Program-made: the position numbers and the translations under genes
In this document: in pieces, positions 12,127 to 59,115 of the stretch
How the letters are laid out: each line of letters begins with the position of its first letter
Position numbering within the stretch: position 1 is the first letter of the stretch
Notes under the pieces: model-generated
What the model was told of the DNA's origin: nothing
Database searches by the model: none
What the model saw: the letters and a program-made list of their open reading frames with translations, nothing else
DNA from: an uncultured Actinomycetes bacterium
GTDB taxonomy: Bacteria; Actinomycetota; Thermoleophilia; Gaiellales; JAICJC01
Length of the DNA stretch: 64,000 bases
Direction: 5' to 3'
Assembly: GCA_963731515.1 (NCBI GenBank)
Contig: CAVSVU010000017.1
Coordinates: 861,164-925,163 of the forward strand

Positions 12127-12203
12127 CCGGGCGCGCAGTCTACCGGGTTACGCGGTCGCGAACATGCGGACGGCGCACGGGCCTGCGGGCCGCCGCTCCG
12201 GGC

Positions 12204-13187: not shown

Positions 13188-13230
13188 TCGCTCGGCCGGC
13201 ATCGCCGGCCGTGTGGGATAGCATCGGGGC

Positions 13231-42963: not shown

Positions 42964-43727
42964 TCGTGGTCGACCAGACAGGGCAGCGTGACGGTGAACT
43001 GCGACCCGCTCCCGACCGCGCTGGACACCGCGATCGAGCCGCCGTGGGCCTCCGTGAGCTCCCGGGCGACCGCCAGCCCCAGCCCGGCGCCGGGCTCCGG
43101 CCGCCGCGCCTGGAAGAACTCGTCGAAGATGAACGGCAGGTCGGCCTCGGCGATGCCCCGCCCCGCGTCCTCGACGGCCACCTGGAGCGTGTCGTCGACC
43201 CGCCGGGCGCGCACGGTCACGTCGGTGCCGGGCGGGGCGTACTTGATGCCGTTGGTGATGAGGTTCGCGAAGATCTGGCGGACGCGGTTCTGATCGCCAC
43301 GGACGAGCGCGCCATTGCAGGTCCACTCGAGGCGCACCCGCACTCCGCCCTGCTCGGCCACCGTCTGCAGCCGCTCGGCGACCTCACTCACGCACGGCTC
43401 GAGCGGGAACACCTCGGCGTTGACGCGCAGCTCGCCCGCCCGTGCGCGCGACAGCTCGAGCAGGTCCTCGATCAGGTAGCCGAGGCGCTCGCACTCGCCG
43501 TCGATCACGTCGAGCTTGGCGGCCTTGGCGGGATCGCACTCCGAGCGGTGGAGGGTGTAGACGTAGCCCTTGATCACCGTGAGCGGCGTCCGCAGCTCGT
43601 GCGACACCTTGCCGATGAACTCTGCCCGCGCCCGCTCCTCGCGGACGAGCAGCGTCGCCAGCTCCTCCACCGACGCGTGCACGCGGTCGTCGGCGCCGCT
43701 CCGGCGCCGGCGCAGCGCGACCCGCAT
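42960..43727 (-). CDS. Histidine kinase (HisKA + HATPase) lacking a sensor domain
   Basis: VSHELRTPL, NLITNGIKY, VEDAGRGI, GAGLGLA; ATG 43727 in a TGATG overlap with the regulator remnant. Confidence 0.92.
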   Translation of the reverse strand: MRVALRRRRSGADDRVHASVEELATLLVREERARAEFIGKVSHELRTPLTVIKGYVYTLHRSECDPAKAAKLDVIDGECERLGYLIEDLLELSRARAGELRVNAEVFPLEPCVSEVAERLQTVAEQGGVRVRLEWTCNGALVRGDQNRVRQIFANLITNGIKYAPPGTDVTVRARRVDDTLQVAVEDAGRGIAEADLPFIFDEFFQARRPEPGAGLGLAVARELTEAHGGSIAVSSAVGSGSQFTVTLPCLVDHE

Positions 43728-43852
43728 CACTCCGGCCTGCACAGGCGGTAGCCGACGCCCCACTCGTTGGCGAGCCAGCCGGCGGGGGAATGGACGCGCA
43801 GCTTCTGGCGCAGCCGGCTGGCGTGCGAGTCGAGCGTCCGGGTGCGGCCGGG
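43727..43852 (-). pseudogene. 3' remnant of an OmpR/PhoB-family response regulator, truncated by the island
   Basis: My translation: PGRTRTLDSHASRLRQKLRVHSPAGWLANEWGVGYRLCRPE-TGA (winged-helix end). An in-frame TAA at 43855-43853 and unrelated sequence lie upstream. Confidence 0.85.
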
Positions 43853-44039
43853 TTAGGAGATAAGGGGTTCCGAAACCGGCCTGCCCGCTGGTCGGGAGCC
43901 GGTGCCGTCCTAAACAACGCTCCGAGGATTCACGCGTGGCGCGCGCAACGCAAGACTTTGGTAGGCCCGACCTAGGAACAAAGTCGCTGGGTGGCCGCGC
44001 GCGTGGGCAGCGGAGCCGATGTGGTTGCCCTGGCTGGCT

Positions 44040-46475
44040 TTACCCTAGGTCCGGGGACCGCCAACGGGCCGCACTTGCCCGAGCCCGTGTCATATCGGCT
44101 CGTATAGTGGCTGCGACCGGGGCCCAATCGAACGCCAGGTCGTCGGCTCGGACGTTTTCCCATTGCGAATCTAGGTACTTAATGAAGACGCTCCCTCGCT
44201 CGAGCCTGTCCTCGACTTCGCGCACATCGCTGAGCAAGTCCGCGAATTTCTGAGTCCACAATCGGCGTGTCGACCACCGCGGCGTCGATGTAAACGAACG
44301 TGCCTATTAGGCGTTTGTAGGTATACGCCCCCCCGGTCGTGATCCGCGAAACTGCCGCGTCGATTTTCGGTCCGCATCACCGGGACTATGCAGCAGGCGC
44401 ATTCGCACACAAAGGTCAAGCGCGAACTCTACCTGCGTAGGGGTGAACCCTATTGCCTGGCCGTGCGCCATGATGGCGCTCAGGCCGACATACCCATCAA
44501 CGCCGGCGACCTGGCCGCTACGCTCGACGAATGCGAGGACGATCGGAATCAGGAAGTGCTGACGGCCGTCGTTGGTGGAGATCTCGAACACGTTCGCGAT
44601 GGGTGATGAACTTGGGTTGTAGTGAACGTTGTCCCCGTAAATGATTGCGCGGACGAACTCGTGGAGTGCAATCAGGTAGTTACCGTCAGCCTCCTCGATT
44701 TCGAAGATCTTGGCTGTATCCACATGGCCGCTGCCGACGAAAGTATTCAGGAATCCCAACGCCGACCGTATGTTGCCTCCGCTGAGGTTCTCCACAAGCT
44801 CCAAGAGCTGTGGCCTCCGTCGAAACGAGCGATCGAGAATCTTCAGGTACATACTCAGTCGGTCGGCTTGTTCATCAAGAGCGCTGGGCATAAGCTCATG
44901 GCGCGTCTCAGGACGCAGGACAAGTTCCTGGCAGAACGCGATCCGCTTTTGAATGACCTCGAGCAGGCTCGGCGGAGCGATCGTGAATACGCGAGGCTGG
45001 TACGCAGTGAGTGACCCCGCCGTGCGGGAGCGGTAGAACGTTTCGGGCCGCAAGCTGAGGAACACGGTGGCGGGCCAAGTCTGCGCCAGGCTTTGCCCGA
45101 TCAGGAAGACGCGTTCTTGGAACTCAAAGTCTCGCTGGTCGATGTTGTCCAAGAACACGATCAACTGGCGCTTCTGGGTCTTCGTCGCATACTTCAAGCT
45201 CGCCTGCAAGTGGCGGTCGCGGATCGCTAGCTTCCTCGACAACAGCTCAATCTCGCGGATGTCATACTCCTCTGGGCGACTCTTGCGGAGGCGGCCGTAG
45301 ACGCTCGTCTCGAAGCTCTGGAGCTCCGCCTTGTAGACGTTCCGGACGAACTTGTCGGCCTCGATATCGAGACCGTCTCTCGCCAGCTGCTCCGTGAAGT
45401 GCTCCGTGACGTACGCTTCGAGATCTTCGGACAACGCAGGCTCTTGTCCGAAGTCGAGCGAGAGTACGATGCTGTTGTTCACGATCTCCCGAGCGTCCAC
45501 CCGTCGGAAGTGGCGGATGAAGATTGTTTTCCCGACGCCCACGTCACCCACCAACAGGAGTGGCCGTCTCCCAAGGCTCGCTGCGACCAGATCCGACTTT
45601 AGGTCAGGCGACAGCGTTCCCTTCGAGCCTGCCGGAACCGGGGTGATGTCTTCCTCCCCCGAAGCAAGTGCCGCGTACCTTGCTTCAAGGATCTCCCGGC
45701 TTACTAAGGCATAGTCGGAAAGGGTGTGGTTCGACGAGTAGCACCTGCTCAGGAACTCGTCTTCAAGTTCAGGCGCGCTCACGATATCCAGCAATACGAG
45801 GTTGCCCAGGGTTTCGAGCCCACCCTGAATCGCGTTACGCTGCCAGTAGCCTGGATAGGTGGCGATCCGCGACGAGAGCTTCGGTGGAGGCGGCACCACA
45901 TCCGACGCACCGAGAGTGGAAACGAGTGCCTGTCGAACGACACCATCCGCGGAGAGGTTGTCCCAGAGAGCCTGAAACTCGGCGCGCATGTCGGCGAGGG
46001 ACGCGAACACGAGCGCACGGCCATCGAGCGGTGGCACACCGTCCTGCCTGCTGCCCAGGAAGGCAACGAGCTGGTGGCCGTTCGAAAACGACGCGCACGG
46101 GACACCGCGAGTGAGGCAATAGTCGCAAACCTGCCGCACCGCAGCAGCGACCGCGTCATCCGACTCCATGACGGTCTTTAGATCCATCGTCCCGGACCCC
46201 ACTCCTGCCGGCAACTCAAAATAGATGCCTTCACGCTTCGCCTCAACGATCAGGCGCGTCGAGAACTCGCCCAGCGCGTAGTCCGCGTATGTGCGTCCAT
46301 GGGGATCCTCTAGGCGAATGTGATCCTTGGGCCAGCGGAGCACGTCTGCGAGCAGCGCGTCTATTAGATGGAATCGGGTGGTCGCCTCGTTGCGCGTCTG
46401 GATACCCCGGCTCTCCCACCACTCCAGAAGGGCGTCTAAGGCTGCGCGGCCACGTTCGAACTCGTCGGCGGTCAT
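44040..46475 (-). CDS. HsdR_N-like nuclease - P-loop ATPase - winged-helix protein (about 810 aa; two frameshifts at 44220-44350)
   Basis: NEATTRFHLID..ADYAL..IVEAKR, LVGDVGVGKT (Walker A), IVFLDNID (Walker B); the C-terminus continues via YIDAAVVDTPI into 44040..44261. Confidence 0.8.
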
Positions 46476-46695
46476 CTACCGGAGAATCTAGCCCTCGGGT
46501 CGGCGGACTGTGCGTACCAGTCCCCACGAGATCCCGATCGCCTGAGGCACGTCGTGGGCACCATCTGACTCCAGCCGATGGGCGCCGGGCGTCGGATGCG
46601 CGCGCACGGCGGCAAGTGTCCGGGGTCGTGGAATCGGCGCGATTCACTCTTGTGGAGTCGGGCGCGTTCGGGCCGCCGCGTGTCACCAGACGATG

Positions 46696-49600
46696 TCACG
46701 TCCAGTTCCGGATAAGAGCTTCGAGGGCTCGTCGGTTCCGAGGGCGCGGCACCGCGCGACCCGCTCGTACCTCTTTGACCTGGCTGAGGCTGATAGTCCG
46801 ACCACCGGCATACGTGGGGAACTCGGCCACAATTGTCCTCGCGGGGATCTCGGCGAGGCGAGGGAGCCAGGTCGTGCGCCAGGGATCGGCGGCGGGATCG
46901 GCATAGGTGTTCAGGACCTCGTCGCCCGCCATGATGCCAACTTCGACTTCTTCGAGGTCGTTGGCCTCCTTCCCGATATAGGTGAGGGAGGTGGCGACGA
47001 CGGGGCGGCGCTGCAGGAGGCCGACCGTCGAGGGCCGGCAGGGTTCGCCCTCGGCGTCAAGGCTCTTCGGCTCGGGGTGGACGCGGTAGCGGGTCAGGAT
47101 GTCGGCGTAGGTGCGGACTCTGACGGCGCCGAGGTTTGGGTCGTCCTCGGCGGTCGTGATCGTGAAGTGCCGCCGGGTGTACCGGTCTTGCCAGGGGAGG
47201 TTGAGCCAGCGGGTGGGATCTCGGTCATACGGCGCGATCAGCTGGAACCGGGTGGAGTCCGCTTCAGGCGGGTGGGCGAGTGGGGCGACCTGGGTTGAGA
47301 GCAGGAAGTTGAAAGCGTTGATCTGCTCCTCGAGCGGGGCGGCCTGGTTGTACGTGCGGAACGGTCTAAGGGTGTATGGGGTGCTGACGGTGATACGGCT
47401 GACCCCGGGTCGCCCGCCCCAGTCCGGCTGGTGGTGATCGCCGCGAAAGGCGGCGAGCCACGTTTGGCGGATCCAGTCGCGGTCGCTGCTCTCGGGATCG
47501 GTTGGGTTGAGGAGGTGACCGAGGCCGTGTTCTGACCATTTCTCAAGCTTGGGCCGAAGGATCGGTGTGCCGGCGGCGTCTCGGCGGTAGAGGGCGTAGC
47601 GCTTGGCGCTGATCGCGTAGCAGAGGAGCTCCCGCTCCTCGCCGTCGATACGGTTCTCACGCTCAAGCTCGAGAACGGGCCCATCGACGATGGACCGGTC
47701 GTAGGGGTTGAGGCGAGTGAACCGGTGTCGGATCGTCTCGACGTCTTCCCACGAGATGAGCGGAATGGCGTCCGTCGGGACGTGTTCCGGGCGTTGGGTG
47801 GCGGCAATGGCGATGCTGTCGGTGTCGCAAAAGGCGTAGGTGCCGCCGGCGTCGGTGACGAGGCGTTCGGTGAGGGCGAGCATGAGCCGGGCGGCGCCGG
47901 TGATGAGGGCGGCCATGGGGGCGAAGAACCACGCGCCGGGGTCTTCCGGGGTGGCGATCGGGATGGTGAAGGTGGTGCCGTCGATGCGGCGGACGGTGAC
48001 GGGTTCGGTGCGCTTGTCGGCGAGTTCGTGGCGGACCATCTCGGCGTAGATGCCGTAGCTGCTGGCGTTCGCCAACACCTTCAGGAATGTCGTCCAGCCG
48101 GGCGTCGGCAGCTCCCGGGTCGCGCCGCAGGGCGATCTCCTTCCTCAGTTCGATCACCCGCCGGAAGAAGTCCTCTTCGGCGGGGTCGACCGGGATCTCG
48201 CCTCGGAGCATGATCCGCCGCGTGATCGACGCTTGCCGGCCGACGGGGCGCAGACGGATCGCGCGGAGGATCTTGGGCGGCTTGTGCTCCGGGTGCAGGA
48301 GCTTGGCGGCGATCACATCGGGGAGGGAGTACCAGAGTGGGAATGGGCTGGTGAGCGGATTGACGCCGATCTGCCAGCCTCCCCCGGCCTGGTAGCGCGC
48401 GCGAATGGGGAGCACGTCGCCGTCCGGCGCGACCTGCACGAGCGCACAGAGGCCTCGCCAGGTGTCAGGGTGGAAGCAGTCGTCGAGGGTGATCGTGTCG
48501 AGGAGGCGGCGGACTTCGGTGGTCGCGTCGGGCGTGTCGATGCGCTCGCAGGTGACCATCGACCACAGGTCCATGAGGCTGTTGACGGTGGGGTACATGG
48601 AGAGGAAGTCGCAGTAGCGCACCGGCACGGTGTGGCGGCGGATGCGGCATTCGGCGCGGCCGCCGTAGTAGGCGGAGGTGGCGTAGCCGAGCACCTCTTC
48701 GGGGAAGTCGGGCTGACGCGCCAGGGGCGGCTGGATCCCCATCGCGGTCAGGTACGCCTTGCCGATGCTGGCGGGCGAGTACGCCTTGGTGGCCGGCAGC
48801 GTGACGGGGTGACGGGCGTACTCCGCCATCAGCCGCTCGTACAGCTCGCCGGTGGCGCGGACGTCGGCGCGGTTGTAGTCGATGTAGGCCGGCGTGATCC
48901 GGCCGTGCTCCTCGGCCTCCTCCTTCGGGTTGGCCACGGCGAAGTCATCGCAGGCGCGGCCGAGCGTATAGCCCTCGTTGGTGAGCGCGAACGCCAGCGT
49001 CCGCAGGTCGAGGAAGTGGCCGAAGAACTGCCGTTCCGGGTGCGCCGCGACGGCGTCTGCGTGTTCGGGGAGGCGAAACCCGATCAGGTGGCGTTTGGAG
49101 TCGATCGTCTTGACCGCGACCCGCGGGCGATACCGCGAGTCGTCAAACCATCCCCCGTCCTTGCGCCGGCCGCGGATGATCGGCAGCGAGAAACCACCCT
49201 CGAACGCGTCGCGACGCCCTCCAGGGTCACGGTTCCTCGTCTCGCCCGCCTGCTTGTACACGAGCCGCGATAGGTCGAACGGGAGATTGAACCCGACGAT
49301 CAGCGCCTGCTGCTCAAACCCGATCCGAAACAGCACCTCCTCGGCAAAGGTGGAACGCGAGTAAAGGCGCAGGTGCCAGGACGGCGGCTGTGCGGCGGGA
49401 TCGATATCAGGCTCGTGGTCGCGGGCGTACGCCTCGAGCGTCGCGTACCCGCCCGGATTACGGGCGGGGAGCGAGTCGTCGTAGATCAGCCCCTCCTCCA
49501 GGCAGCGCAGCGTCGGCACACCGTCAGTCCAGGTCGCGTGGAAGTAGCGCCACGAGCCGAAAGGTCAGCTGCTGCCCGGGATCGACCGTCGTCTCGCAGT

Positions 49601-49733
49601 CGAACACGACCACGATCTTCGGTTCACGGTTCTCCTGTTCGGCCTCGTGAGGCTCATCATCCGCGGCCGGCAGACAACCCGCACTCGGCGCGTACGCCCG
49701 AACCGCGATCGGAAGCCTCGACGTGGCCGTCAT
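46696..49733 (-). CDS. polB: Family B DNA polymerase, casposon-type (about 1010 aa; indels near 49560 and 48100)
   Basis: Exo I VFDCETT, Exo II VGFNLPFD, Exo III YNRADV, YYGGR, motif A DFLSMYP, motif B KVLANASSYG, motif C CDTDS, KRY. Confidence 0.92.
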
Positions 49734-49737
49734 CCGC

Positions 49738-50628
49738 CTATGCCTCGGCGATCAGCTCATCCAGGGCCGCCTCCGCGTCCCCGCTCGTATGAGCGTCGGC
49801 GAGCCGCACGTAGAACCGCTGGATGACGTCGTTTACACGGACGGCCTTCACCAGATTCGTGACCAGCACCCGACCTTGTTCGTCTTCACTTGCGCGTGGA
49901 TCGAACGGCTCGAGGTCGAGCGACCGCCCCAGCTTCTGGACGGCGTCGAAGTACTCGCCGGACCGGCCCGACTCCACCAGCAGCAAGAACCCGCGACCGA
50001 CGTCCTCGTGACGCGCCGCAAGCTGCTCGAGCTCCTGGGTGCGGCAGGTATCGCCGAGCATGCTGCGGGCTGCCCCCGCTTCCAAATCAAGAACCCCTCG
50101 CGCCTGGATACGGTCTGTCGCGTCACGTTTGGACCGCGGCGGCGGTTTCCGCACTCTCGGCGAGCTCCACCGCTTCGCCGCAGTTCGCGCCGGTGACCCC
50201 CCGGCGAGGCGTCGATCGCGAAGGCGGGGATCCGGCCCGACCACCCGATCCGTGATGTCGGGAGGGTCAATCTGAAAGATCGTTTGCGTGCCCGTGTCGC
50301 CAAGCCGCTCCATCACGTCGCCCTCGCCGTCCATCCGTGCGTAGCGCATGGCCAGGGCGAGGACGTCCGTGAGCCCGCCGAACACGCCTGCGGCGCGTTC
50401 CGCCTCCGACCGCTCCTCATGGTCTAGGCGGACACCGCGTGCCCGCTGCTGCTCCGTTAACACCTCATGGCAGTAGGAGCCGTCCCGCCGGCACGCCCCG
50501 ACCGTGAGCCCGCGATCGTTGGCGTGACCGGCGACGTGGTGCTGTTCGATCTTCGCCGGCGTCGTCCGCCCACACGTGAGGCACACCTCGCCTGGCTGCA
50601 CCCACCCTGAGTCGAGCCGGGACGTCAT
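49738..50628 (-). CDS. HNH-like Zn-binding endonuclease-domain protein
   Basis: CLTCG..EQHHVAGHAND..C..CH N-terminal domain; ATGA overlap with the upstream HTH gene, stop 4 nt from the polB ATG. Confidence 0.7.
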   Translation of the reverse strand: MTSRLDSGWVQPGEVCLTCGRTTPAKIEQHHVAGHANDRGLTVGACRRDGSYCHEVLTEQQRARGVRLDHEERSEAERAAGVFGGLTDVLALAMRYARMDGEGDVMERLGDTGTQTIFQIDPPDITDRVVGPDPRLRDRRLAGGSPARTAAKRWSSPRVRKPPPRSKRDATDRIQARGVLDLEAGAARSMLGDTCRTQELEQLAARHEDVGRGFLLLVESGRSGEYFDAVQKLGRSLDLEPFDPRASEDEQGRVLVTNLVKAVRVNDVIQRFYVRLADAHTSGDAEAALDELIAEA

Positions 50629-51140
50629 GCCGCGGTGAGCGCGTAGAACTCGTCGAAATCCGGCTCGCCTCGCAGGGCAGCCTCCTCGATCACGTCCGGA
50701 TCCGTCTCCAACAGGACGCCGCCGAACGAGCGGCCGCGGAAGGGGACGAGCGCGTCGACGTCGCCCTCCAGAAACCGGTCGACCGCCTGGTTGTACTTCG
50801 CGATCGTGCTCGCCTGGCGACTCCCCGTCACGGTCACCAGCCGAGCGCCGTCAGGCGTCCGCACCCGCACCCGCCGCACCAGGCGGTCACCGGAGCGGAC
50901 ACGGACCCGTGCCCGGGCGCTGCTCCGCCTAAACGCCGACCCCGCATACCGCAAGACCGTCTGCCGCGTCGTCCCAAGCGCCTTGGCCGCCCGGGTCAAC
51001 GACTCCCGCCCGTCACCCCGCCGAAGCCGATGCACCACCCGAAGCGCCTTCTCATACCGGGCCCGCTCGCGAGGCGACAGGCGCTCGAACTGCTTCGCAG
51101 ATCGAGGCTCCTTCGCGCCCTTCATGGCATTCGTCGGCAT
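50625..51140 (-). CDS. HTH DNA-binding protein
   Basis: SLTRAAKALGTTRQTVLRY HTH; ATG 51140 with a GGAG RBS. Confidence 0.8.
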   Translation of the reverse strand: MPTNAMKGAKEPRSAKQFERLSPRERARYEKALRVVHRLRRGDGRESLTRAAKALGTTRQTVLRYAGSAFRRSSARARVRVRSGDRLVRRVRVRTPDGARLVTVTGSRQASTIAKYNQAVDRFLEGDVDALVPFRGRSFGGVLLETDPDVIEEAALRGEPDFDEFYALTAA

Positions 51141-51209
51141 AGGTTCTCCGTCGACTCGAGCGGGTCGGCTGCCGGCTCGGATAGACAGCGAGCACGGCAC
51201 GGCGCACCT

Positions 51210-51249
51210 CCCGGCTCGCCCGTGATATCCACCTCACGAGCGAGCCGGG
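51210..51249. other. 16-bp-stem inverted repeat in the divergent casposon intergenic region
   Basis: CCCGGCTCGCCCGTGA-TATCCACC-TCACGAGCGAGCCGGG, one mismatch. Confidence 0.7.
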
Positions 51250-51431
51250 TTAGGCCTTCCCGTTCCCCTCGGCGAGGCGTCTCGGTGACAGTGACCAGCT
51301 TCGTCCTGTCAGCTAGCTGCAGCTGCCTCTAGTGAAGCGAGGTGGTCGGGGGTGAACGGGTGGTGTCGGGAGAGTGTCGGGCCTGCGGGCCGAAAGTGTT
51401 TGCATGAGTTCCGACCCCTAATCTGTTCGCG

Positions 51432-52271
51432 TTGCCCACCCGTGTCCCCAGCCGAGCCGACCGCGCCCTCGCCACGAAGCTACGCGAGGAGGGCTATGGC
51501 TGGGTGCGCGACACGCAGCTCCAGGGCTGGCGACGCGCCGGTGCGCTGCCCGAGGTCACGGTCGTCCGACCGGCGCGACGCGGCTCAGAGTCGGTGTACC
51601 CCGAGGGCACCCTCGACCAGGCCAGGGCGTTGTGCGCGTACCTGGAGCGCTACCGCGACCTTGATAAGGCCGTCGTGCTCTTGTGGTTGTCCGGCCACCC
51701 GATCGAGACCCGCGCCCTCCGGCGCGCGTTCAGACGTGGCCTAGGCTGGATGGACAAGACCATCGCCGCCCACCGCGTCAAAGGCATGAGCGACGACCAG
51801 CTCGCGAGCCGCGTCGCGCGCGCCATCGTCGCCAGCCCGAGGCGCACACACGACGACCAAGCCACTCGCCGGAAGGCGATCCAGACGGCCGGCGGGCGCC
51901 AAGAACTCGCCGACGTCTACAAGCAATTCGTGCTCCTCTACCTCGGCGCTCCGGTCGGGGCTGCCGGATTTCTCGGCGCAGTGCGCGCCGCCGGATGGAA
52001 CCTCCCAGCGACCGACCTGGCGGATGGCCCCCTCTCGCAGCGGCTTGACGAACTCCAGGCAGAACCCGGCGCCGCCGGCGGACTCGGCACCATGCTCCGC
52101 ACCCGAGTCCCCGGCATGACCGCCGAGGACTTCAACGGCCTCCGAGGATTCCTTAAAGGCATGTGCGAGTTCGCGGTTCAGGGCGGCGATAGCTTCGGCC
52201 TCCCGAACACGGGCTTCCTCACCGACTGCGCCCACGCTCTCGGCTACCACGACCCCGGGCACACCCGGTAG
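51432..52271 (+). CDS. Hypothetical protein with MerR-like N-terminal HTH
   Basis: LQGWRRAGALP..GSESVYP; directly upstream of cas1; TTG start uncertain. Confidence 0.6.
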   Translation: MPTRVPSRADRALATKLREEGYGWVRDTQLQGWRRAGALPEVTVVRPARRGSESVYPEGTLDQARALCAYLERYRDLDKAVVLLWLSGHPIETRALRRAFRRGLGWMDKTIAAHRVKGMSDDQLASRVARAIVASPRRTHDDQATRRKAIQTAGGRQELADVYKQFVLLYLGAPVGAAGFLGAVRAAGWNLPATDLADGPLSQRLDELQAEPGAAGGLGTMLRTRVPGMTAEDFNGLRGFLKGMCEFAVQGGDSFGLPNTGFLTDCAHALGYHDPGHTR

Positions 52272-52345
52272 AGTCGCTTCTACATTCAGCGGCCCGGCGA
52301 CGCGGCAACGTCCCGGGCCCGGCACCGGAACAACGGAGGTTCCAG

Positions 52346-53878
52346 ATGCCCGCCCAACCTAGCGCACCGCTGACCCACGACGACGCCGGGGCGCGCGCCC
52401 ACGAGAGCCGCTTCCCGGACAATGTGACGGGTGTTCGGGTCGTCGACGGGTACGGCGTCAAGATCTCGGTCAGGCGCCGCATGCTCGTCGTGGAGGACGG
52501 GATCGGCCGTCAGCGCCGACAGACGACGCATGCCCGGGCGACCTGCCCGTTCCGCCGACTGCTCATCCTCGGCCACACCGGCTACATCTCCCTCGAGGCC
52601 ATCCGCTGGTGCTGGGACCTCGGGATCGGCATCGTCCACATCGACGCCGACCGCAACCTCCTCCTGACCAGCGCCCGCCGCGACGTCGCCACCAACCGCC
52701 TACGCCGCGTACAAGCCTTCGCCCCATACACCGAGCTGGGCGTCGAGGCGGCTCGGCTCGTGATGCGATCGAAGCTGGCCGGCCAGCAGGACGTGGCGCG
52801 CAATCTGAGCGGCGGTTGTGGCGACGCTGCGGTATCGACGATCGGCGACGCCCTCAGGGCCGTCGAGGCCGCGTCCACGCTTGACGACGTGCTCGCTGCC
52901 GAGTCGACCGCGGCGTTCGCATACTGGGACACGTGGAGCCGGCTCCCACTCCGCTTCGCCAGTCGTGGCGGCCGCGAGGTGCCGGGTCACTGGGCCACGT
53001 TCGGAATCCGGTCGTCGCCGATCTCGGGGACACGCCGCCACGCAGCCACCCCCGCGAACGCGCTCCTGAATTACGCCTATGCCCTTCTTGAGGCGGAGAC
53101 CACGCTCGCACTTCACGCCTCGGGACTCGACCCTGCACTGGGGATCTGGCACCGCGATGAGGCTGGCCGCGACTCGCTCGCGCTGGATGTCATGGAGGCG
53201 GCACGCCCGGCCGCCGATCGTCTTGTCCTACGGCTCCTGACCGACGGCGCGTTGCGTCCACGCGACTTCTACGAGACCCGCCGGGGGGCGTGTCGTGTTC
53301 TCCCGCCGCTCTCGCACCACCTCGCCACCTGGATGTCCACACTCGCAGGCGCAATCGAGCCGACCGTGCTCCAGCTGGGTCGGCTGTTCGACCGCACCGT
53401 CGACGTGGAAGACGCCGGCGGCGTCCTGTTTGCGCGGCCTCGACGCTCCGAGCATCGGCGAGCGTCGGTACGGAGCACCTGGCCGGGCCAACACGTCATC
53501 CGGGCCTGCCGGGTGTGCGGCGTCGTTCTCCCGGTCGGATCCCGAGACGCCCACTGCGAGAACTGCGCGCCGCACCGCCCGCCAAGCGCCGACGCCGCGC
53601 ACCGCGACGCCGGTGCCCGCGTCACTCAAGCCCGGCGTGACAGTATCCGCCGTCAGCGTGTCGCGGCACTCGAATGGGATCGCCACAACACCCGACCCAA
53701 CCCGGCCATCTTCCAGGTCGAGATCCTGCCGCACCTCCAGGGCATCAGCTACTCGGCGCTAGCACGAGCAACCGGACTCAGCCGCCGCTATACGAAACTG
53801 ATAGCGACCGGCCAGGCGACCCCACACCCGATGCATTGGGCCGCGTTCCGATCCGCGGGCCAGGCGCGCAGCATCTGA
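52346..53878 (+). CDS. cas1: Stand-alone Cas1 (casposase) with C-terminal Zn finger and HTH
   Basis: ISLEAIRWC, AESTAAFAYW (E), NALLNYAYALL, GLDPALGIWH (H), SLALDVMEAARP (D/E), then CRVC..CENC and an HTH; GGAGG RBS. Confidence 0.93.
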   Translation: MPAQPSAPLTHDDAGARAHESRFPDNVTGVRVVDGYGVKISVRRRMLVVEDGIGRQRRQTTHARATCPFRRLLILGHTGYISLEAIRWCWDLGIGIVHIDADRNLLLTSARRDVATNRLRRVQAFAPYTELGVEAARLVMRSKLAGQQDVARNLSGGCGDAAVSTIGDALRAVEAASTLDDVLAAESTAAFAYWDTWSRLPLRFASRGGREVPGHWATFGIRSSPISGTRRHAATPANALLNYAYALLEAETTLALHASGLDPALGIWHRDEAGRDSLALDVMEAARPAADRLVLRLLTDGALRPRDFYETRRGACRVLPPLSHHLATWMSTLAGAIEPTVLQLGRLFDRTVDVEDAGGVLFARPRRSEHRRASVRSTWPGQHVIRACRVCGVVLPVGSRDAHCENCAPHRPPSADAAHRDAGARVTQARRDSIRRQRVAALEWDRHNTRPNPAIFQVEILPHLQGISYSALARATGLSRRYTKLIATGQATPHPMHWAAFRSAGQARSI

Positions 53879-54064: not shown

Positions 54065-54517
54065 TTGAGGCGCGCTCTGATTGTCACCACGGTAGCCTTG
54101 GCGATGAGCATCGCGACCGTAAATTCAGCCGAAGCCGCTCCGAAGTGGCCAGCCCGTTGCACGACGTGGAAATGTGTGAACGCCCACCTGAACAGCCTGC
54201 ACGCGACGGTCCTGGCGCAGAAGACCAGAATCACGAAGGTGAACACAAACCTCAACGGATTTTTCGGCTGTCTGTACGAAGCCCCAGTGACCGAGTATGG
54301 CGACCCCTCAGGGACATTCGGATATCTGTGGACGGACGATGGCAACCCGGCAGACGCCTATGCCACCAGCGGGTTCGACTACACAAATAGCGGCAATATC
54401 CCAGACTTCTGGGCCTTCGTCGACAATTGCAGTCGCAACACTCCAGCTCGGGTCGGGCAGCAGACCCTGAGTCGGGGCGGATACTCCACGCATCTGCTCG
54501 CCGGCTCGCGCAGGTAA
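54065..54517 (+). CDS. Secreted hypothetical protein (4 Cys)
   Basis: Signal peptide ending AEA; AAGGGGAA RBS-like sequence. Confidence 0.7.
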   Translation: MRRALIVTTVALAMSIATVNSAEAAPKWPARCTTWKCVNAHLNSLHATVLAQKTRITKVNTNLNGFFGCLYEAPVTEYGDPSGTFGYLWTDDGNPADAYATSGFDYTNSGNIPDFWAFVDNCSRNTPARVGQQTLSRGGYSTHLLAGSRR

Positions 54518-54540
54518 CCGACCCCGCGCGCACAAACGGT

Positions 54541-54571
54541 GCGGCCACCGGGTAGCACACTCGGTGGCCGC
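54541..54571. terminator. 10-bp-stem hairpin between convergent genes
   Basis: GCGGCCACCG-N11-CGGTGGCCGC. Confidence 0.45.
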
Positions 54572-54685
54572 TACGTGCGCTTGCAGCGCCACGGTTTTCC
54601 ACCGGCATCGCCGTCGCGTTGATCGCGGACGGCCGGACCCCGCAAGGGGCGGCGCTTCGCCGGGTAGGTGCGGATACCGTTCAGG

Positions 54686-55120
54686 TCAGCAGACCTTGTA
54701 GCCGAGTGATGTCCCCTTGTACGCGCAGCTGTCGCGGATGGTGCCTGTGCGCTTGACGAGCGTCGCCTTGTCGCCGGTGTTGTTCCAGATGTAGTTGCCC
54801 GATCGCCAGTAGAGGTTCGCCGCGGCGTTGGTGCCCGAGCCGGTGTGAACTCGAACGGAGCAGCCGCCACACAGCGAGAACTTGGGGAACGTGAAGCGGT
54901 GGTGTGACTGGTCATGCAGCCGCCACCCAGTCAGCGCCTTGGCGCGCTTGCCGTTGTTGTGGACGGTCACCCACTCCTTGTTCAGGCTGAGATTGGATCC
55001 TGTATCTGGGCCAGGCGGGTTGTAGCGGACGAACGAGATCAGGATCTCCGCACTTGCGACCGAGGGGAATCCGAGCAAGAAGACGACCACGAGCGGGACG
55101 ACGAGCCGACGCACGACCAT
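54686..55120 (-). CDS. Secreted lamin-tail-domain (LTD) protein
   Basis: Signal peptide, YNPPGPD..EWVTVHN..LTGWRL..FTFP..VHTGSG..IWNNTGD. Confidence 0.85.
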   Translation of the reverse strand: MVVRRLVVPLVVVFLLGFPSVASAEILISFVRYNPPGPDTGSNLSLNKEWVTVHNNGKRAKALTGWRLHDQSHHRFTFPKFSLCGGCSVRVHTGSGTNAAANLYWRSGNYIWNNTGDKATLVKRTGTIRDSCAYKGTSLGYKVC

Positions 55121-55239
55121 GCTACGCACCTCCCGAGGTGACGAGGGATCGCCAGACCGTAGCTCACCCGAATGGGGCACGCCACCTCGCGATCCCACTC
55201 CTAGGATCGCGGCTGTCCCGACCGACGGAGAGGTGATCG

Positions 55240-55617
55240 GTGCCGCTGTTCAACAAGCAGACTGAAGAAGACAAGCAAGCCGACCGCCGACGTAAAGAGC
55301 AGGAGAAGGCGGAACGCGCCGTCCAGGAGGCCGCCGCCCGGCAACTCGAGGAGGAGCGTAACGCAGCCGAGCAGGCAGCCTACGCGACCTATCTCGCGGC
55401 GATCCCCAAGTTCGAATACGAGGTGCTTACCCTCTCCTCCACCATCTGGGCCAGCGCCGGCAAGTTCGACGGCAGTGGCCTCCAAGAGACCCTCAATCAG
55501 CACGCCGCCGAAGGGTGGCGGGTTATCGAGATCGCCATGAGCGGCAAAATCGAGAAAGCGTTCAGCGCCGACCGAAACGACATGTACGTCGTCTTCGAGC
55601 GGCCGGGCCGCCGCTGA
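55240..55617 (+). CDS. DUF4177-like protein
   Basis: Coiled-coil N-terminus, FEYEV..LNQHAAEGWRV..VFERP. Confidence 0.75.
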   Translation: MPLFNKQTEEDKQADRRRKEQEKAERAVQEAAARQLEEERNAAEQAAYATYLAAIPKFEYEVLTLSSTIWASAGKFDGSGLQETLNQHAAEGWRVIEIAMSGKIEKAFSADRNDMYVVFERPGRR

Positions 55618-55989: not shown

Positions 55990-58900
55990 GTGGCAGTGGA
56001 GCTTGATGCGGGGCAGGCGAGAAGGTTCCAGAGCCTGGTGGCCTCCGCGGAGTTTGAGAGTGAGGAGCGCGCGTACAAGGTCGCTCTCCACGAGGTGCTT
56101 CTAAGGATCCTCGACCCTGGCGCCCTGGATCAGCCCGAGTCAGCCCAACGCCTTGCTGATTTCTTCCGCGACCGGCTTGACCTGGCCGAGCTCGGGTTCT
56201 CAAGCGAGGATGCTGATGCGATCGGGTCGGCTGCAGCCCCTCTTGGGGGGATACGTGGCGCCTTCGCGAACCTTTGCGGGGGGCGGTGGGGCGTCAATAA
56301 CTTCGTCTGGATTCCAGGCGCGATCGACGCTGGCCTTGGACAGCCGACTCTTGAGGCGTTCGCGCGCCTCGTCGACGAGGGCCGGCCGCTCGCTGATCGG
56401 GTCGACCAGTTCCGTGTCGATCTCCGTGAGGTCGAGGAGCGAGCCGCTGGTGGATCGGGGTGGCAGGAGCAGTGGCATGTCATCGATATCCAGCTGGCGT
56501 TCGTCGCGGCGCTCCTAGGAGCGTTGGATCCGCAGCGCTACACCTTCTACCAAGCGACTCTCCTTCGGGAGGCAGTCGAGCGGTACGGCGGTGAATGGCC
56601 CAAGGGCAGCGCGGGGACGCGGTACGCGGCGATTTGTGAGTTCGTCCAGGCTGTCCGGTTTCAACTCGAGCAGCACGGCGCGTCGACAAGGGACTTGATC
56701 GATGTCCAGAGCTTCCTCTTTCTCACAACTCAGGAAGGCAGGGGTGAGGAGCGGACGCCACGTGTCTGGATCGTCCGCGCCGGTCAGCACGGAGAAGGCG
56801 AAGAGGTCGCGCTCAGCAACGACGCCGCAGTCATTGGCTGGCGCGAGCTGCCAGATCTAAGCGGCTATCCGGATTTCCCCGCCATCAAGGCCCTGTACAC
56901 CGAGCAGTTCCCGACGGACTCGCCGCAGACAATCAGCAAGCAGGCGTCCCAGATCGATCGGTTCGTCCATGAGTTGCGCGTCGGAGACTTCGTGCTGCTC
57001 CCGCGGGTTCTGGAGCCTGAAGTTGTTGCTGTGGGTGAGGTCGTCGGTGACTACGAGTACCACCCGGAAGCACCGTTCTTCGACGCCGACGCAGTTCACA
57101 CACGTCCCGTCGACTGGTTGGACACCGCCGTGCCGCGGTCATCCTTCGATCGCGAGTTGCGCGGCCGGCTCGGCCTCACCGGGACGGTCGCCCAAATCCA
57201 CCTCTCAGACACCTCCGACCGGGTCCGCAGAGCGCTCGGCGAACCGAGCACGGAGCAGCAATCGGGGGTGAGTTACTGGTGGGTCAACCAGGGCAAGTCT
57301 TTTGACCGCTCGCGAACAGGTGGCTACCTGTGGGCGCCCCGCGAAGGCGCCGGTGGCCGCCAATTCGCCCACTGGCTCAACATGACCAAGGTCGCCGTCG
57401 GCGACATCGTCCTCCACTATTCGAGCGGCTATCTCCGTGCCGTCGGCCGCGTCACTCACGAAGCCGTCGAAGCGGACCGCCCAACTTCTCAAGACCTGCA
57501 GTGGGACGAGCGAGGCTGGGTCGTTCAACTTGACTACCTGGATCTCGACCCCACGATCCCGCTGGAGACGATCCCGGTGGAATGGCGAGAATCTGAACGA
57601 GGCCCGTTTGCCCGCACTGGCCAAGTTAATCAGGGCTATCTGTTCCCGCTCTCGACGGCGTTCGCCGAGCAGCTCGCGGGACGCTTCCCCCAGGTGCAGG
57701 CCGCGTTCGACGAAGCTGATGGCGCACCACGACGAGCCCACCTGTGGTGCATCTACGCCGGCCGTGGCGTCGCGGCGAACCTCGACATAGGACGCAAAGC
57801 CGGCGTCTGGGGCGTCCGCAAGCCCGACCGACTCCGAGACCTTCACCAGGGCGACGAGGTGCTCCTGGTGCACGACCTGACCAGCGACGTCAGCCCCGCA
57901 CCGCCCGGGTTTCCACGCGTGGGACTCCAAGATTTCCACGGCGTCGCAACGGCAGTGCTCCGTGCCACCATCACCGGCGAACCATTCACCGACGACACGC
58001 CGATCTGGCCCGACGCCACGTACCCGGATCGATTCCGTTTCACCGAGCAGTCGTTCGACCACCAAGTCCCCGTCGACGAACACCACCTCGAGACCGATGT
58101 CCTGGATGCGATCCGCCGATCAGCCCTCGACGGGGGATGTCCGATCTTGGCGGGATCACTCCCCGACCTACCAGCTGGGTACGTCGAGCCGGAGTTCGAG
58201 ACGATCGAAGCGCAGATCAAGGCTGAGGGCCTTGAGATGTCGCCGCAAACGCTGCGCCGCTACCACCTCTCCCTGAAGACGCGCGGCTTCGTGATCCTGT
58301 CCGGGCTCAGCGGCAGCGGCAAGACGTGGCTCAGCCAGGCCTACGCCAACGCGGTCGAGGCCCGACCGCTGCTGGTCGCGGTCGCGCCCAACTGGACGAC
58401 GAACGAGGACCTGCTCGGCTACTGCAACCCGCTCGACCAGACAGCTATGTGGACACCCAGTTCAGCGCGTTCCTCCGCGAGGCGGCACGCGAACACGAAC
58501 AGGCTGCGCTCCACGAGCGCGCCGCGTTCCCGTATCACCTGATCCTGGACGAGATGAACCTCGCGCGCGTCGAGTACTACTTCGCGAAGTTCCTCTCGGA
58601 CGATGGAGGTCCGCGCCCGCGGCGACGACGCGTACGATCGAGCTCGCGCCGGGCGAGCACGTGCGACTGCCGCCGAATCTGTACGTTCATCGGCACGGTC
58701 AACGTCGACGAGACGACGCACGGCTTCGCCGACAAGGTCTACGACCGCGCCCAGCTGCTCGAGCTGACCATCACCGAGGACGACATCAACAAGCACCTCG
58801 GCGAGCGTCGACTACGCCGAGGCCGTGCTCGCGGTCTGGAAGGCCGTCCACGACCTCGCGCCGTTCGCCTACCGGACTCTTGACGAGATCACCGCCTACA

Positions 58901-59115
58901 TCACCCAAGCCGAGCTCATGAAGGTGCCCTGGCAGGAAGCGCTCGACGAGCAGCTCGTCCAGAAGGTCCTGCCGAAGCTGAAGGGTGCCAATCCGGATAT
59001 CAAGACGGTGCTCGAACGCCTCATCGAGGTATGCGCCGAGTACCCTCTCACCAGGACGAAGGCGCAGCGGATGCTCGACGACTACCGCCGGTATGGGTTC
59101 ACCTCCTACTTCTAG
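55990..59115 (+). CDS. mcrB: McrB-like AAA+ GTPase with three EVE/PUA-like domains (several indels at 58440-58810)
   Basis: GLSGSGKT, VAPNWT, LILDEMNLARVEYYFA, GTVNVDETT, QKVLPKL; ends GFTSYF-TAG. Confidence 0.88.

Follow-up and report, generated by a model that had tools for sequence, protein, structure and literature searches.

Gene content of the core region

The window analyzed here, a 64,000-nt stretch of DNA from an actinobacterium assigned at the order level as Gaiellales-like, contains between 46696 and 53878 two divergently oriented gene groups, which encode a family B DNA polymerase (PolB) with two partner proteins and a Cas1 protein with an upstream gene:

46699-49733, minus strand: PolB, ~1011 codons in three reading frames (motifs, profile matches)
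49738-50628, minus strand: 296-aa HNH protein (profile match to McrA HNH)
50625-51200, minus strand: 191-aa conserved HTH protein, first gene of an HTH-HNH-PolB operon (weak Pfam HTH match)
51201-51431, no strand: spacer separating the two divergent core operons (gene coordinates)
51432-52271, plus strand: 279-aa protein, encoded ahead of Cas1 in the same orientation (nothing significant among families or PDB entries)
52346-53878, plus strand: casposase Cas1, 510 aa (Pfam Cas_Cas1, HMMs, neighbor-joining tree)

The coupled HTH-HNH-PolB operon, with PolB as its last gene, is as an earlier sequence-only reading of this DNA had described it: the 191-aa ORF overlaps the 296-aa ORF by 4 nt, and the latter ends 4 nt ahead of the PolB ATG at 49733. 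The HTH signal of the 191-aa protein is weak but consistent (Pfam, and a similarly weak profile match to PDB structures), and homologues occupy the same position in 54 of 88 related loci. The 296-aa protein harbors an N-terminal HNH-type zinc-finger nuclease domain with the pattern CxxC...HH...C...CH (C16, C19, H30, H31, C46, C53, H54) and a C-terminal extension beyond the domain. A profile of its relatives matches the McrA HNH domain (E=1.6e-6), and its orthologue in the related locus L088 is 58% identical and contains the same CRKDGSYCH variant. Promoters are presumed, from the gene coordinates, to lie within 51201-51431. The 279-aa gene had been labeled MerR-like, a label we do not retain, as the protein gave no significant match to MerR or to any other family or PDB entry; weak homologues are found at the same position in six loci. 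Cas1 and PolB are linked in 66 of 86 related loci.

Cas1 is a family 3 type casposase with an intact catalytic tetrad

The Cas1 protein matches Pfam Cas_Cas1 (2e-38), and in an alignment with reference casposases its residues E186, H269, D281, and E284 coincide with their catalytic tetrad, which bears out the earlier observation that the E/H/D positions are kept. The C terminus contains a four-cysteine zinc ribbon (C388, C391, C404, C407) followed by an HTH. When scored against per-family HMMs, the protein obtained 300.6 bits for family 3, compared with 106.1 for family 2, 68.9 for CRISPR Cas1, and 37.3 for family 1. The family 3 score was 253.8 bits with AceAut left out of the model, while accepted family 3 members, used as a control, gave leave-one-out scores of 176-246 bits. 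In a neighbor-joining tree, in which the deep nodes have bootstraps of 41-55%, the protein falls inside family 3 beside AceAut-C1 and not with the CRISPR Cas1 proteins. The sequence identities are 43% to AceAut, 42% to SacSpi, and 25-27% to family 2. Thus, of the family 2/3 placement suggested previously, the family 3 part stands and the family 2 part does not.

Generic models (TIGR00287, PADLOC Cas1) also match the protein, and its relatives are labeled "CRISPR-associated endonuclease Cas1" in source databases, as would be expected if it were an orphaned or degenerate CRISPR adaptation gene beside a PolB left by an unrelated phage, pipolin, or plasmid. We give that explanation next to no credence. 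Consistent with what had been noted from the sequence, searches of the 64,000-nt window returned no CRISPR array, Rfam match, or cas2-like ORF; none of the 90 related loci has an array (0/90), and no cas2 or other cas gene lies near them or in the window. The family 3 HMM outscores the CRISPR one roughly threefold, the Cas1-PolB linkage is kept across phyla, terminal inverted repeats (TIRs) and target-site duplications (TSDs) enclose Cas1 and PolB together in relatives, and there is no integrase among the annotated genes of the island.

PolB retains its motifs but is split by two frame changes

The previously described complement of PolB motifs, and its distribution over three ORFs, was reproduced. 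Exo I (FDCET) is located in a 69-aa first piece, and the remaining motifs are Exo II (NLPFD), Exo III (YNRAD), motif A (DFLSMYP), motif B (KVLANASSYG), motif C (YAFCDTDS), and KxY (SAKRY). The motif positions are invariant or nearly so in a 24-sequence alignment, and a profile built from this alignment matches PDB family B polymerases (E=1.8e-5 for Pol alpha). Each frame change comes down to one surplus base in a short homopolymer run, a T run at 49560-49562 and a G/C run at 48114-48116, and removal of the two bases produces a clean 1011-codon ORF with no stops. The repaired gene has a dN/dS of 0.21 when compared with the intact, 73-75% identical orthologue of L088.

If the two breaks in PolB, and at least two in an McrB-like cargo gene (see below), are real, the window copy would be a dead relic, immobile, decaying, and vertically inherited, a reading that we put at somewhat less than an even chance. 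The breaks stand in the assembled sequence, and the first PolB break, which yields the 69-aa ORF, recurs in a separate Logan assembly (run ERR12037367); that assembly, however, may share reads with the one containing the window, and its contigs end at ~48057, 58098, and 58690, beside the broken regions. Fragmented PolB genes are also present in six relatives (L020, L031, L041, L047, L053, and L068), and Methanosarcina casposons are known with inactivated PolB copies (PMC4779613). Against decay, removal of one base at each of two sites suffices to restore the 1011 codons, and the invariant motif residues are all kept; together with the dN/dS of 0.21, this indicates that any inactivation was very recent. 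Moreover, compared with its L001 orthologue, a host Tad-operon gene adjoining the element likewise contains 1 inserted nt, which suggests assembly-level indels. The single-base breaks in PolB and the McrB-like gene may therefore be recent mutations or assembly errors, and may reflect assembly indels rather than decay. Self-synthesis by the window copy is putative, as PolB is not one ORF in the sequence as assembled.

The left terminus lies within a response-regulator gene

The element begins exactly at position 43850 and runs beyond 64000, and is therefore larger than 20.15 kb. The region 46696-53878, to which the sequence-only reading had confined it, covers the core but not the whole element. 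The features at the left junction are:

42960-43763: histidine kinase, partner of the regulator (Pfam HisKA, HATPase_c)
43730-43849, minus strand: 3' fragment of an OmpR-type response-regulator gene, last 40 codons (GRTRTLDSHASRLRQKL...CRPE) and stop (tblastn)
43835-43849, no strand: 15-bp target copy CGTCCGGGTGCGGCC (reverse complement GGCCGCACCCGGACG), regulator codons 196-200 (GRTRT)
43850-43882, plus strand: left TIR (terminus) GGGTTAGGAGATAAGGGGTTCCGAAACCGG..., which fits the clade TIR consensus
43850-64000, no strand: visible part of the casposon (GC drop; no second terminus in the window)

The GC content of the element is 60-70% (60% at 44-46 kb, 68-70% in the core, and 64-66% at 54-64 kb), compared with a host background of 73-79%, and the host homology to the related loci L001, L093, and L091 stops at 43849. 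The left terminus abuts the 15-bp target within the regulator gene. The remaining regulator fragment, directly upstream of the gene for the histidine-kinase partner, is 92.5% identical to the C terminus of the restored L001 regulator (tblastn) and matches the intact L093 regulator at 39 of 40 residues, showing that the insertion cuts the last 40 codons off the regulator gene and parts the gene from its kinase partner. Only the left end is visible in the window; neither a second terminus nor the 5' part of the regulator gene was found up to 64000. The right TIR, the second TSD copy, and the regulator 5' part are expected past the window end, where the junction should read inverted GGGTTAGGAGATAAGGGG..., then CGTCCGGGTGCGGCC, then the regulator 5' part. 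Position 43835-43849 would thus be one copy of the duplicated target.

Both termini are seen in relatives. The clade to which the window element belongs gave 157 genome hits, among them 17 complete elements bounded by TIRs and TSDs. These elements are 11.5-19.1 kb in length; their TIRs span 23-385 nt and their TSDs 14-19 bp, ranges that agree with published family 3 values, and all 17 have the TIR consensus GGG(A/T)TAGGAGATA(G/A)GGG..GAAA at both ends. The casposon proposal had been tied to bounding TIRs and a TSD, of which the window contains the left TIR and target.

Related elements use the same target in both orientations

Empty sites, a comparison that had also been proposed earlier, are present in L093 and L091, both of which contain an intact, uninterrupted regulator gene with a single target copy and show homology to the window that begins exactly at the target base. 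The L001 locus harbors a 16,051-bp element with a 52-nt TIR at both ends and a perfect 15-bp TSD, inserted at the same regulator codons as the window element but in the opposite orientation, and the junction of the L006 element is located at these codons as well. These structures show that independent elements use the same target in both orientations; integration in this clade is site-specific.

The shared site of the window, L001, and L006 elements would also arise, with no site-specific targeting, from one old insertion that was passed on vertically and then underwent inversion and divergence. The hosts are indeed related, their flanks are syntenic with 78% nucleotide identity, and recombination of one TIR with the other could in principle cause an inversion (discussed in PMC4779613). 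Yet the element proteins are only 39% (PolB), 37% (HTH protein), and 61% (Cas1) identical, compared with 66-92% for the flanking host proteins, and PolB is under purifying selection despite this divergence. The elements differ wholly in cargo and are opposite in orientation, the close relatives L093 and L091 have clean empty sites, and the L088 element, whose PolB module is 75% identical to that of the window, resides at another site. Target reuse across genomes is found in other subclades too. We therefore regard a single shared insertion as very improbable and favor repeated, site-specific integration.

Collectively, the Cas1 placement, the boundaries, the empty sites, and the absence of CRISPR components support the earlier proposal of a casposon. 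The element is a genuine casposon, one of the large self-replicating transposons whose integration depends on a Cas1 enzyme. We assign a probability of about 90% to the reading that 46696-53878 represents its core, that it belongs to the bacterial, AceAut-C1-like family 3, and that it is integrated in the chromosome of a Gaiellales-like soil actinobacterium. The suggestion that it might represent a new host lineage or subfamily is narrowed: the element is a new member of the already described bacterial family 3, which includes the actinobacterial casposon StrAlb-C1 (PMC4046053), and only the host order is new. The wider interest lies in the clade, a large and barely described soil radiation.

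Cargo genes and the extent of the element

In addition to the core, the low-GC island contains the following genes, the first six of which are listed as cargo:

44307-46475, minus strand: P-loop ATPase (AAA_16-like), 722 aa (Pfam AAA_16, 4e-7)
54065-54517, plus strand: 150-aa secreted protein
54686-55198, minus strand: lamin-tail-domain protein (Pfam LTD, 8e-20)
55240-55617, plus strand: DUF4177 protein (Pfam DUF4177, 4e-11)
55990-59115, plus strand: McrB-like AAA_5 NTPase with N-terminal PDC-S02-like domains (Pfam AAA_5; PADLOC PDC-S02, 9e-38)
58985-60781, plus strand: DUF2357 and PD-(D/E)XK nuclease, McrC-like partner (PDDEXK_7, 6e-23; DUF2357, 5e-9)
61339-62469, minus strand: 376-aa secreted FlgD-Ig-domain protein (Pfam FlgD_ig, 2e-15)
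62641-63597, minus strand: 318-aa protein (no Pfam or PADLOC matches)

The ATPase gene lies between PolB and the left terminus; its AAA_16 match is below the curated cut-off, its NCBIfam Sll1717-family match is weak, and it has no PADLOC match and no homologue in the related loci. The genes at 54065-55617 are also present on an independent Logan contig. The McrB-like gene has frame breaks at ~58441-58446 and near 58.83 kb, between which the sequence is out of frame, and PDC-M26A profile positions 305-389 and 386-427 match on two different frames. The McrBC-like restriction module and the P-loop ATPase are likely defense genes carried as cargo.

The 54-64 kb genes are provisionally assigned to the same casposon, from their GC content and because no terminus was seen before them. 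It is also conceivable, though unlikely, that the island is composite, the McrBC-like and secreted-protein genes at 54-64 kb representing a second, tandem or nested element and the casposon either ending beyond the window or having lost its right end. The GC content differs between the segments, tandem casposons and nested IS elements are found in relatives (L069/L073, L059, and L067) along with an IS3-family element in L001, and a length >20.15 kb exceeds that of all 17 complete relatives (maximum 19.1 kb). However, AceAut-C1 is itself 20,034 bp, the L006 element carries McrBC too, beside PolB, and neither a TIR-like internal terminus across 43.9-64 kb nor a recombinase in the visible part was found.

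Proposed mechanism and comparison with known elements

No family 3 casposase is yet known to transpose or integrate DNA. By analogy with what biochemical work has established for casposases of families 1 and 2 (PMC5137440, PMC6977970, PMC8464041), the Cas1-type casposase would bind the TIR ends, with its C-terminal zinc ribbon and HTH probably helping to read the ends and the target, and would link their 3' ends to the target at points 15 bp apart on its two strands. Repair of the gaps would then generate the 15-bp duplication. Copying or excision of the element is presumably the task of its family B polymerase, acting with the HNH and HTH proteins.

Pipolins (piPolB) resemble the window element as integrated elements with a family B polymerase and defense cargo, but they use tyrosine recombinases, usually target tRNA genes, have att direct repeats, and lack Cas1 (PMC11551731). 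In contrast, the window element combines Cas1 with TIRs and a 15-bp TSD, and its visible part yielded no recombinase. The experimentally studied family 2 casposons of Aciduliprofundum boonei and Methanosarcina mazei follow the same logic as the window element, with a C-terminal HTH in the casposase, an RNA-primed-type PolB, HNH and HTH proteins, and a 14-15 bp TSD. Their sequence-specific integration, target reuse, insertion in both orientations, and tandem arrays (PMC4779613, PMC5137440, PMC6977970) likewise have counterparts in the window clade. Unlike the window element, however, they reside in archaea, at tRNA gene 3' ends or intergenic sites, and their Cas1 proteins are distant (25-27% identity; 106 vs. 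301 bits).

StrAlb-C1 and the Cas1-solo of Saccharopolyspora spinosa (PMC4046053, PMC4779613) share the host phylum, Actinomycetota, with the window element, and their Cas1 proteins are 37-42% identical to that of the window. In StrAlb-C1, the direct repeat is 17 bp long and the TIR is G-rich with a AGTAGAGAGAG-like core, similar to the window element, and the HNH gene is common to the actinobacterial family 3 members. However, these hosts are Actinomycetes, whereas the window host is Thermoleophilia/Gaiellales-like, and StrAlb-C1 lacks both the extra Cas1 domains and the conserved HTH protein (PMC4046053), which the window element has.

The closest reference is AceAut-C1 (PMC4046053), whose Cas1 nests in the window clade in the neighbor-joining tree and also has a zinc-binding domain and HTH at its C terminus. 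Both elements encode PolB, HNH, and the conserved HTH protein, and AceAut-C1, at ~20 kb with a 15-bp TSD, is similar in dimensions. They differ in host phylum and cargo, and AceAut-C1 was reported as intergenic with a 602-nt TIR, whereas the window element is located in a coding gene and the TIRs of its clade are mostly 23-59 nt. Separately, 22 nt of the left TIR of the window element were also seen as a solo copy in two metagenome contigs.

Gene Content and Family of the Window Element

By the defining features tested, the element that starts at 43850 and runs past the end of the window is a family 3 casposon. The sequence-only reading had already taken it for a casposon, and that interpretation is supported with corrections, as the features of the superfamily and of family 3 that were examined and lie within the window were found, the family assignment being Cas1-based. 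The window has a GC content of ~75% up to ~43.8 kb and of 60-70% from there to its end, and the region from 46696 to 53878 comprises two divergent gene sets.

Features of the window element and its target
43835-43849: 15-bp regulator target
43850 onward: casposon left terminus, GGGTTAGGAGATAAGGGGTTCC..., fitting the clade TIR consensus
Between PolB and the left end: 722-aa ATPase, AAA_16-like
46699-49733, minus strand: PolB gene, family B polymerase, ATG at 49733, frame broken
49738-50628, minus strand: 296-aa ORF with N-terminal HNH-type domain, ending 4 nt before the PolB ATG
50625-51200, minus strand: 191-aa ORF, HTH protein, 4-nt overlap with the 296-aa ORF
51432-52271, plus strand: 279-aa ORF, after a 231-nt gap, no family match
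52346-53878, plus strand: Cas1, 510 aa, casposase
Right of Cas1: secreted 150-aa protein, lamin-tail-domain protein and DUF4177 protein
55990-59115, plus strand: McrB-like AAA_5 gene, PADLOC PDC-S02 and PDC-M26A, frame broken within 58440-58880
Partner of the McrB-like gene: DUF2357/PD-(D/E)XK gene
Last visible genes: FlgD-Ig secreted protein and a 318-aa protein without assigned function

The minus-strand genes form the coupled HTH-HNH-PolB operon first read from the sequence, its tight packing confirmed by a 4-nt overlap followed by 4-nt spacing. The 296-aa protein contains an N-terminal CxxC...HH...C...CH domain, and an HNH profile built from this protein and the PolB-adjacent genes of ten relatives matches the McrA HNH domain (E=1.6e-6) and also the HNH domains of IscB. 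In the window protein a four-residue insertion replaces the usual Asn, giving a CRKDGSYCH variant. Decay was rejected as its explanation because the 58% identical orthologue on the metagenome contig L088 carries the identical variant, and the insertion is therefore a subclade trait. The 191-aa protein harbors an 'SLTxAARxxGTTxxTVRRY' helix-turn-helix motif, with weak matches to HTH families, and 54 of 88 loci encode it at the corresponding position. Both the HNH gene and the conserved HTH gene of the family 3 gene set are present, the former by profile and the latter by locus conservation. The 279-aa gene, by contrast with its earlier label of MerR-like, has no significant match in Pfam, NCBIfam, PADLOC or PDB, and the label was dropped.

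Cas1 matches Pfam Cas_Cas1 (2e-38). Its length of 510 aa and its retained catalytic positions, both noted previously, hold up: E186, H269, D281 and E284 do not vary across 34 members of the clade, and in alignment they fall on the tetrad of CRISPR Cas1 and the reference casposases. Also invariant in the clade alignment is a C-terminal four-cysteine zinc ribbon (C388, C391, C404 and C407) with an HTH, and in this the protein resembles the Cas1 of the published family 3 casposon AceAut-C1, which likewise has a C-terminal zinc-binding domain and HTH (PMC4046053).

The reference Cas1 alignment in Additional file 2 of PMC4046053, which covers families 1, 2 and 3 and CRISPR Cas1, was used for a neighbor-joining (NJ) tree and for per-family HMMs. 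The window Cas1 scored 300.6 bits with the family 3 HMM (253.8 without AceAut), 106.1 with family 2, 68.9 with CRISPR Cas1 and 37.3 with family 1, compared with 176-246 bits for accepted family 3 members in leave-one-out controls. In the NJ tree the window clade lies inside family 3, with AceAut-C1 nested among the Chloroflexota members of the clade; the actinobacterial subclade has 100% bootstrap support and the deep nodes a modest 41-55%, and the HMMs place the protein more clearly than the tree. Sequence identity was 43% to AceAut, 42% to Saccharopolyspora, 37% to StrAlb and 32% to NitAL212, compared with 25-27% to family 2 and 15-26% to CRISPR Cas1. Hence the window Cas1 groups with the family 3 casposases (NitAL212, AceAut, StrAlb, SacSpi and HenMar) and not with families 1 or 2, nor, in the comparison that the sequence-only reading had proposed, is it nested within CRISPR Cas1. 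Since StrAlb-C1 is an actinobacterial family 3 casposon already on record, the host phylum is not new for the family.

A CRISPR-Cas adaptation module would have Cas1 beside cas2 and an array. No CRISPR array, Rfam match or cas2-like ORF was found within the window up to 64000, and these searches confirm the earlier observation that it holds neither cas2 nor CRISPR repeats. Moreover, relatives have no further cas genes in their gene tables, and no CRISPR array occurs in 90 related loci (1.45 Mb in total). CRISPR-like repeats in the related loci L014 and L037 were rejected, as they are perfect tandem repeats. A pipolin would combine a primer-independent PolB with a tyrosine recombinase and att direct repeats, in most cases at a tRNA gene. 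The element does not have this makeup either: the genes annotated between 43.85 and 64 kb include no tyrosine or serine recombinase or classical transposase, the window has no tRNA gene, and there is instead a TIR with a 15-bp TSD-type junction. Targeting of tRNA genes was likewise rejected, given the window without such a gene and a tRNA near the element end in only 2 of 19 relatives.

The Family B Polymerase and Its Frame Breaks

PolB spans three frames (49733-c.49561, c.49561-c.48115 and c.48115-46699). The initial description, a family B polymerase with all Exo I-III and Pol A/B/C motifs that is split by indels, was reproduced in both motifs and frames. The exonuclease motifs read FDCET (Exo I), NLPFD (Exo II) and YNRAD (Exo III) and the polymerase motifs DFLSMYP (A), KVLANASSYG (B), YAFCDTDS (C) and SAKRY (KxY). 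Aligned with 23 intact relatives, these positions prove invariant or nearly so. The family could not be established from single sequences, the individual fragments giving only a sub-threshold DNA_pol_B_2 match in Pfam/NCBIfam and nothing by phmmer against PDB, and an alignment profile was required. This profile matched Pol alpha (E=1.8e-5) and also archaeal PolB in PDB, and its exonuclease region matched DEDD nucleases. The element therefore contains the PolB that marks the casposon superfamily, despite two 1-nt frame breaks in the window copy.

In relatives PolB is one ORF of ~1000-1140 aa. Comparison with the closest of these, the intact 1019-aa protein of L088 (73-75% identical), reveals exactly two frame changes in the window gene, each caused by one surplus base in a short homopolymer, the first being TTT (49560-49562) and the second a run of G/C (48114-48116). 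Without the two extra bases the gene has 1011 codons, no stop and a dN/dS of 0.21 relative to L088. The breaks may be real and reflect very recent inactivation, as the first break is present in a separate Logan assembly of run ERR12037367 and PolB genes are fragmented in some relatives too. Alternatively, the breaks may be assembly-level indels, as PolB is otherwise undamaged, the adjacent host Tad-operon gene has a comparable 1-nt insertion relative to its orthologue in L001 (a related locus), the McrB-like cargo gene has several breaks inside 450 nt, and Logan contigs terminate beside broken stretches.

The host gene in question (~42270-42888, minus strand), orthologous to a 240-aa Tad-operon gene of L001, occupies two frames through a 1-nt insertion at 42655-42665 (tcggCcgcc in the window versus tcgg-cggg in L001); either it is a pseudogene or the assembly has single-base indels. 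This frameshift is known from the direct L001 comparison only, as a codon-position GC frame map could not tell gene boundaries from frameshifts and so gave no count of host frameshifts. In the McrB-like gene the frame changes at least twice, with a short out-of-frame stretch within ~450 nt, and the two Logan contigs over the island flank this stretch, ending at ~58098 and ~58690.

Insertion into a Response-Regulator Gene at a Defined Target

The left boundary is defined by comparison with L001, from the chromosome of MAG MFD05502.bin.2.11, which encodes a Cas1 61% identical to that of the window. The 16,051-bp L001 element ends in TIRs of 52 nt and is flanked by GGCCGCACGCGCACG, a perfect direct repeat of 15 bp. 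When its flanks are joined they yield an intact 235-aa OmpR-type response regulator, whose residues 196-200, GRTRT, are specified by the repeated 15 bp. The window retains the final 40 codons of the orthologous regulator (43849-43730, minus strand), directly upstream of the histidine kinase gene (42960-43763), and the target CGTCCGGGTGCGGCC at 43835-43849 abuts GGGTTAGGAGATAAGGGGTTCCGAAAC at 43850. Host homology between the window and L001, 78% identity over 4.6 kb, ends exactly at the junction base. Homology to two further loci, L093 (85.9% identity) and L091 (77.8%), likewise ends exactly at 43849; in both, the kinase follows an uninterrupted 235-aa regulator in which the target occurs once, and they thus provide the empty site in relatives that had been suggested as a check.

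No part of the window contains the 585 nt that precede the target in the regulator gene, and searches within it for a second terminus or second TSD copy found none. The element is therefore longer than 20.15 kb, with its right end outside the window. Casposons typically have a TSD of about 14-15 bp. Of the TIRs and TSD that the sequence-only reading proposed to look for, the window has one TIR (left, at 43850) and one 15-bp target copy at that terminus, with the second end beyond it; L001 and 16 other relatives have TIRs at both ends and TSDs of 14-19 bp.

The related locus L006 has the same junction in the same regulator codons. The orientation of the core relative to the regulator is the same in the window and L006 and opposite in L001; the element proteins are less similar (PolB 39%, HTH 37% and Cas1 61% identity) than the flanking host proteins (66-92%); and the cargo is entirely different between the compared elements. 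The opposite orientation, excess divergence and different cargo argue for independent insertions of the window, L001 and L006 elements into one specific site, the same reasoning as applied to Methanosarcina casposons (PMC4779613).

The insertion deprives the regulator of its recognition-helix and wing region and parts the kinase gene from its promoter. With the regulator truncated and the kinase so separated, this two-component system, whose genes adjoin those of the Tad pilus, is probably inactivated, as judged from the gene structure.

The L004/L005 element has its terminus (L004, 13100-13160) next to GCCGACACACGCACGCTC, which resembles the regulator target GGCCGCACGCGCACGCTC yet lies outside that gene, a hint that the subclade recognizes a short sequence motif and not the gene as such. 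In L092 (ENA ERZ25039457 contig_18236, ~3626) the kinase is identical to that of L091 and the downstream DNA is 99.98% identical, but homology is lost at about codon 110 of the same regulator, with an AAA_25 gene and a gene for 308 aa upstream; the regulator gene has here undergone another insertion or rearrangement, away from the casposon target. The terminal 22 nt of the window element, extending to ~33 nt, are also found by themselves, far from any casposon genes seen on the contigs, at 413-434 of L089 and 1127-1148 of L090 (JGI contigs Ga0070714_100141058 and Ga0070713_100222611), alleles that differ by a ~130-nt indel and in which the copy sits between a regulator-like gene and a membrane-protein gene. 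It looks like a solo-TIR footprint, and a metagenome 22-mer match was rejected as the right end of the element because it was only such a copy at an unrelated locus.

Related Elements in Other Genomes

A scan of one genome per species identified 157 Cas1 relatives, in Actinomycetota (Gaiellaceae, Solirubrobacteraceae and Acidimicrobiia), Chloroflexota, Acidobacteriota, Gemmatimonadota and others. PolB lies divergently upstream of Cas1 in 66 of 86 loci, most of the others being cut by contig ends. Automated searching recovered 17 complete elements. They measure 11.5-19.1 kb, their TIRs 23-385 nt and their direct repeats 14-19 bp. The window terminus fits the sequence common to their termini, GGG(A/T)TAGGAGATA(G/A)GGG...GAAA, and many duplications contain GTCAA/TTGAC. 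Sizes and repeats match published family 3 elements, namely AceAut-C1 (20,034 bp, 15-bp TSD), NitAL212-C1 (14.4 kb, 14-bp TSD) and StrAlb-C1 (17-bp repeat). Targets in the clade are generally not tRNA genes, and the same target is reused across genomes in the Acidobacteriota loci L054/L059/L067 and L066/L069. In addition, L069 and L073 are tandem casposons on one contig (CAWEFX010000005.1), and in the right flanks of L059 and L067 a TIR-like sequence of another element begins next to the TSD.

Relative to the window, L088 shows identities of 73-75% for PolB, 58% for HNH, 76-84% for HTH and 59% for Cas1, and L001 and L006 show 58-61% for Cas1 and only 36-39% for PolB; this mosaic of identities suggests that Cas1 and PolB modules have been exchanged between elements. 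The closest Cas1 (72% identity over 85% of its length), at 1347-2867 of L087 (JGI Ga0597083_0011499), also has a DUF4177 match and is preceded by ArsR-like and DUF899 genes and not by a PolB operon; L087 may be a truncated element or a derivative lacking PolB. In L001 an IS3-family element (rve and HTH_Tnp_1, with its own 26-nt inverted repeats; 12014-13303) sits inside the casposon downstream of Cas1, and the L002 contig of the same assembly ends at the boundary of this IS3-family element.

Proposed Mechanism and Significance

The CRISPR adaptation machinery is proposed to descend from casposons. To our knowledge, casposon biochemistry has so far concerned archaeal families 1 and 2 only, and fewer than about ten bacterial (family 3) casposons have been described. 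Taken alone, the single window element is confirmatory and not surprising. Together with its relatives, it indicates that family 3-type casposons are common among uncultured soil bacteria, integrate at defined sequences with 14-19 bp duplications and carry defence cargo. Slightly more likely than not, with a probability of roughly 0.55, is a joint reading in which the window element represents a large, almost undescribed soil radiation of AceAut-like family 3 casposons. This radiation would span at least 157 species-level genomes and be strictly site-specific, with reused targets and tandem arrays, and one actinobacterial subclade would have evolved to hit the conserved GRTRT coding motif, in the recognition-helix region, of an OmpR-family regulator, knocking out a two-component system by the Tad operon. 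If true, this would be the first protein-coding, gene-disrupting target reported for bacterial casposons, and it would open casposase target recognition to study in a tractable bacterial system. In the literature, family 3 insertions are all intergenic (PMC4779613), and later papers contain only a small hot-spring set and mention of an unpublished survey (PMC9755687, PMC9966878 and PMC9939771). As far as the searchable literature goes, three points appear to be new: the host order, how large the soil radiation is, and the protein-coding disrupted target.

Given the gene set, catalytic residues, exact junction and empty and occupied alleles observed directly, and the TIR/TSD geometry observed in relatives, a route of integration can be drawn by analogy with archaeal casposases (PMC5137440, PMC6614799, PMC6977970 and PMC8464041). 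The casposase would bind the TIR ends and join them to the target strands 15 bp apart, gap repair would then yield the 15-bp duplication, and the PolB, HNH and HTH proteins would support replication or excision. A defined target with occupied and empty alleles suits reconstitution of bacterial casposase integration, and the locus makes it possible to study DNA recognition by the zinc-ribbon and HTH extension.

Host and Cargo

The flank of the element contains the dcw cluster, gcvPA/gcvH and gltX, and the host FtsZ is 87-90% identical to 'Gaiellales bacterium' entries. The dcw cluster and FtsZ identify a bacterial host, as in family 3, and the FtsZ similarity supports the Thermoleophilia-like origin first proposed. 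Defence cargo, also part of that proposal, is represented in the window by the McrBC-like module. Defence-type cargo is recurrent among these elements, with McrBC also in L006 and SIR2-like and DUF4145 genes in L004 and L088. The stretch encoding the 722-aa ATPase (44000-46500) has a GC content of ~60%, compared with 68-70% in the casposon core, and has no homologue in related loci; this gene is probably recently acquired cargo.
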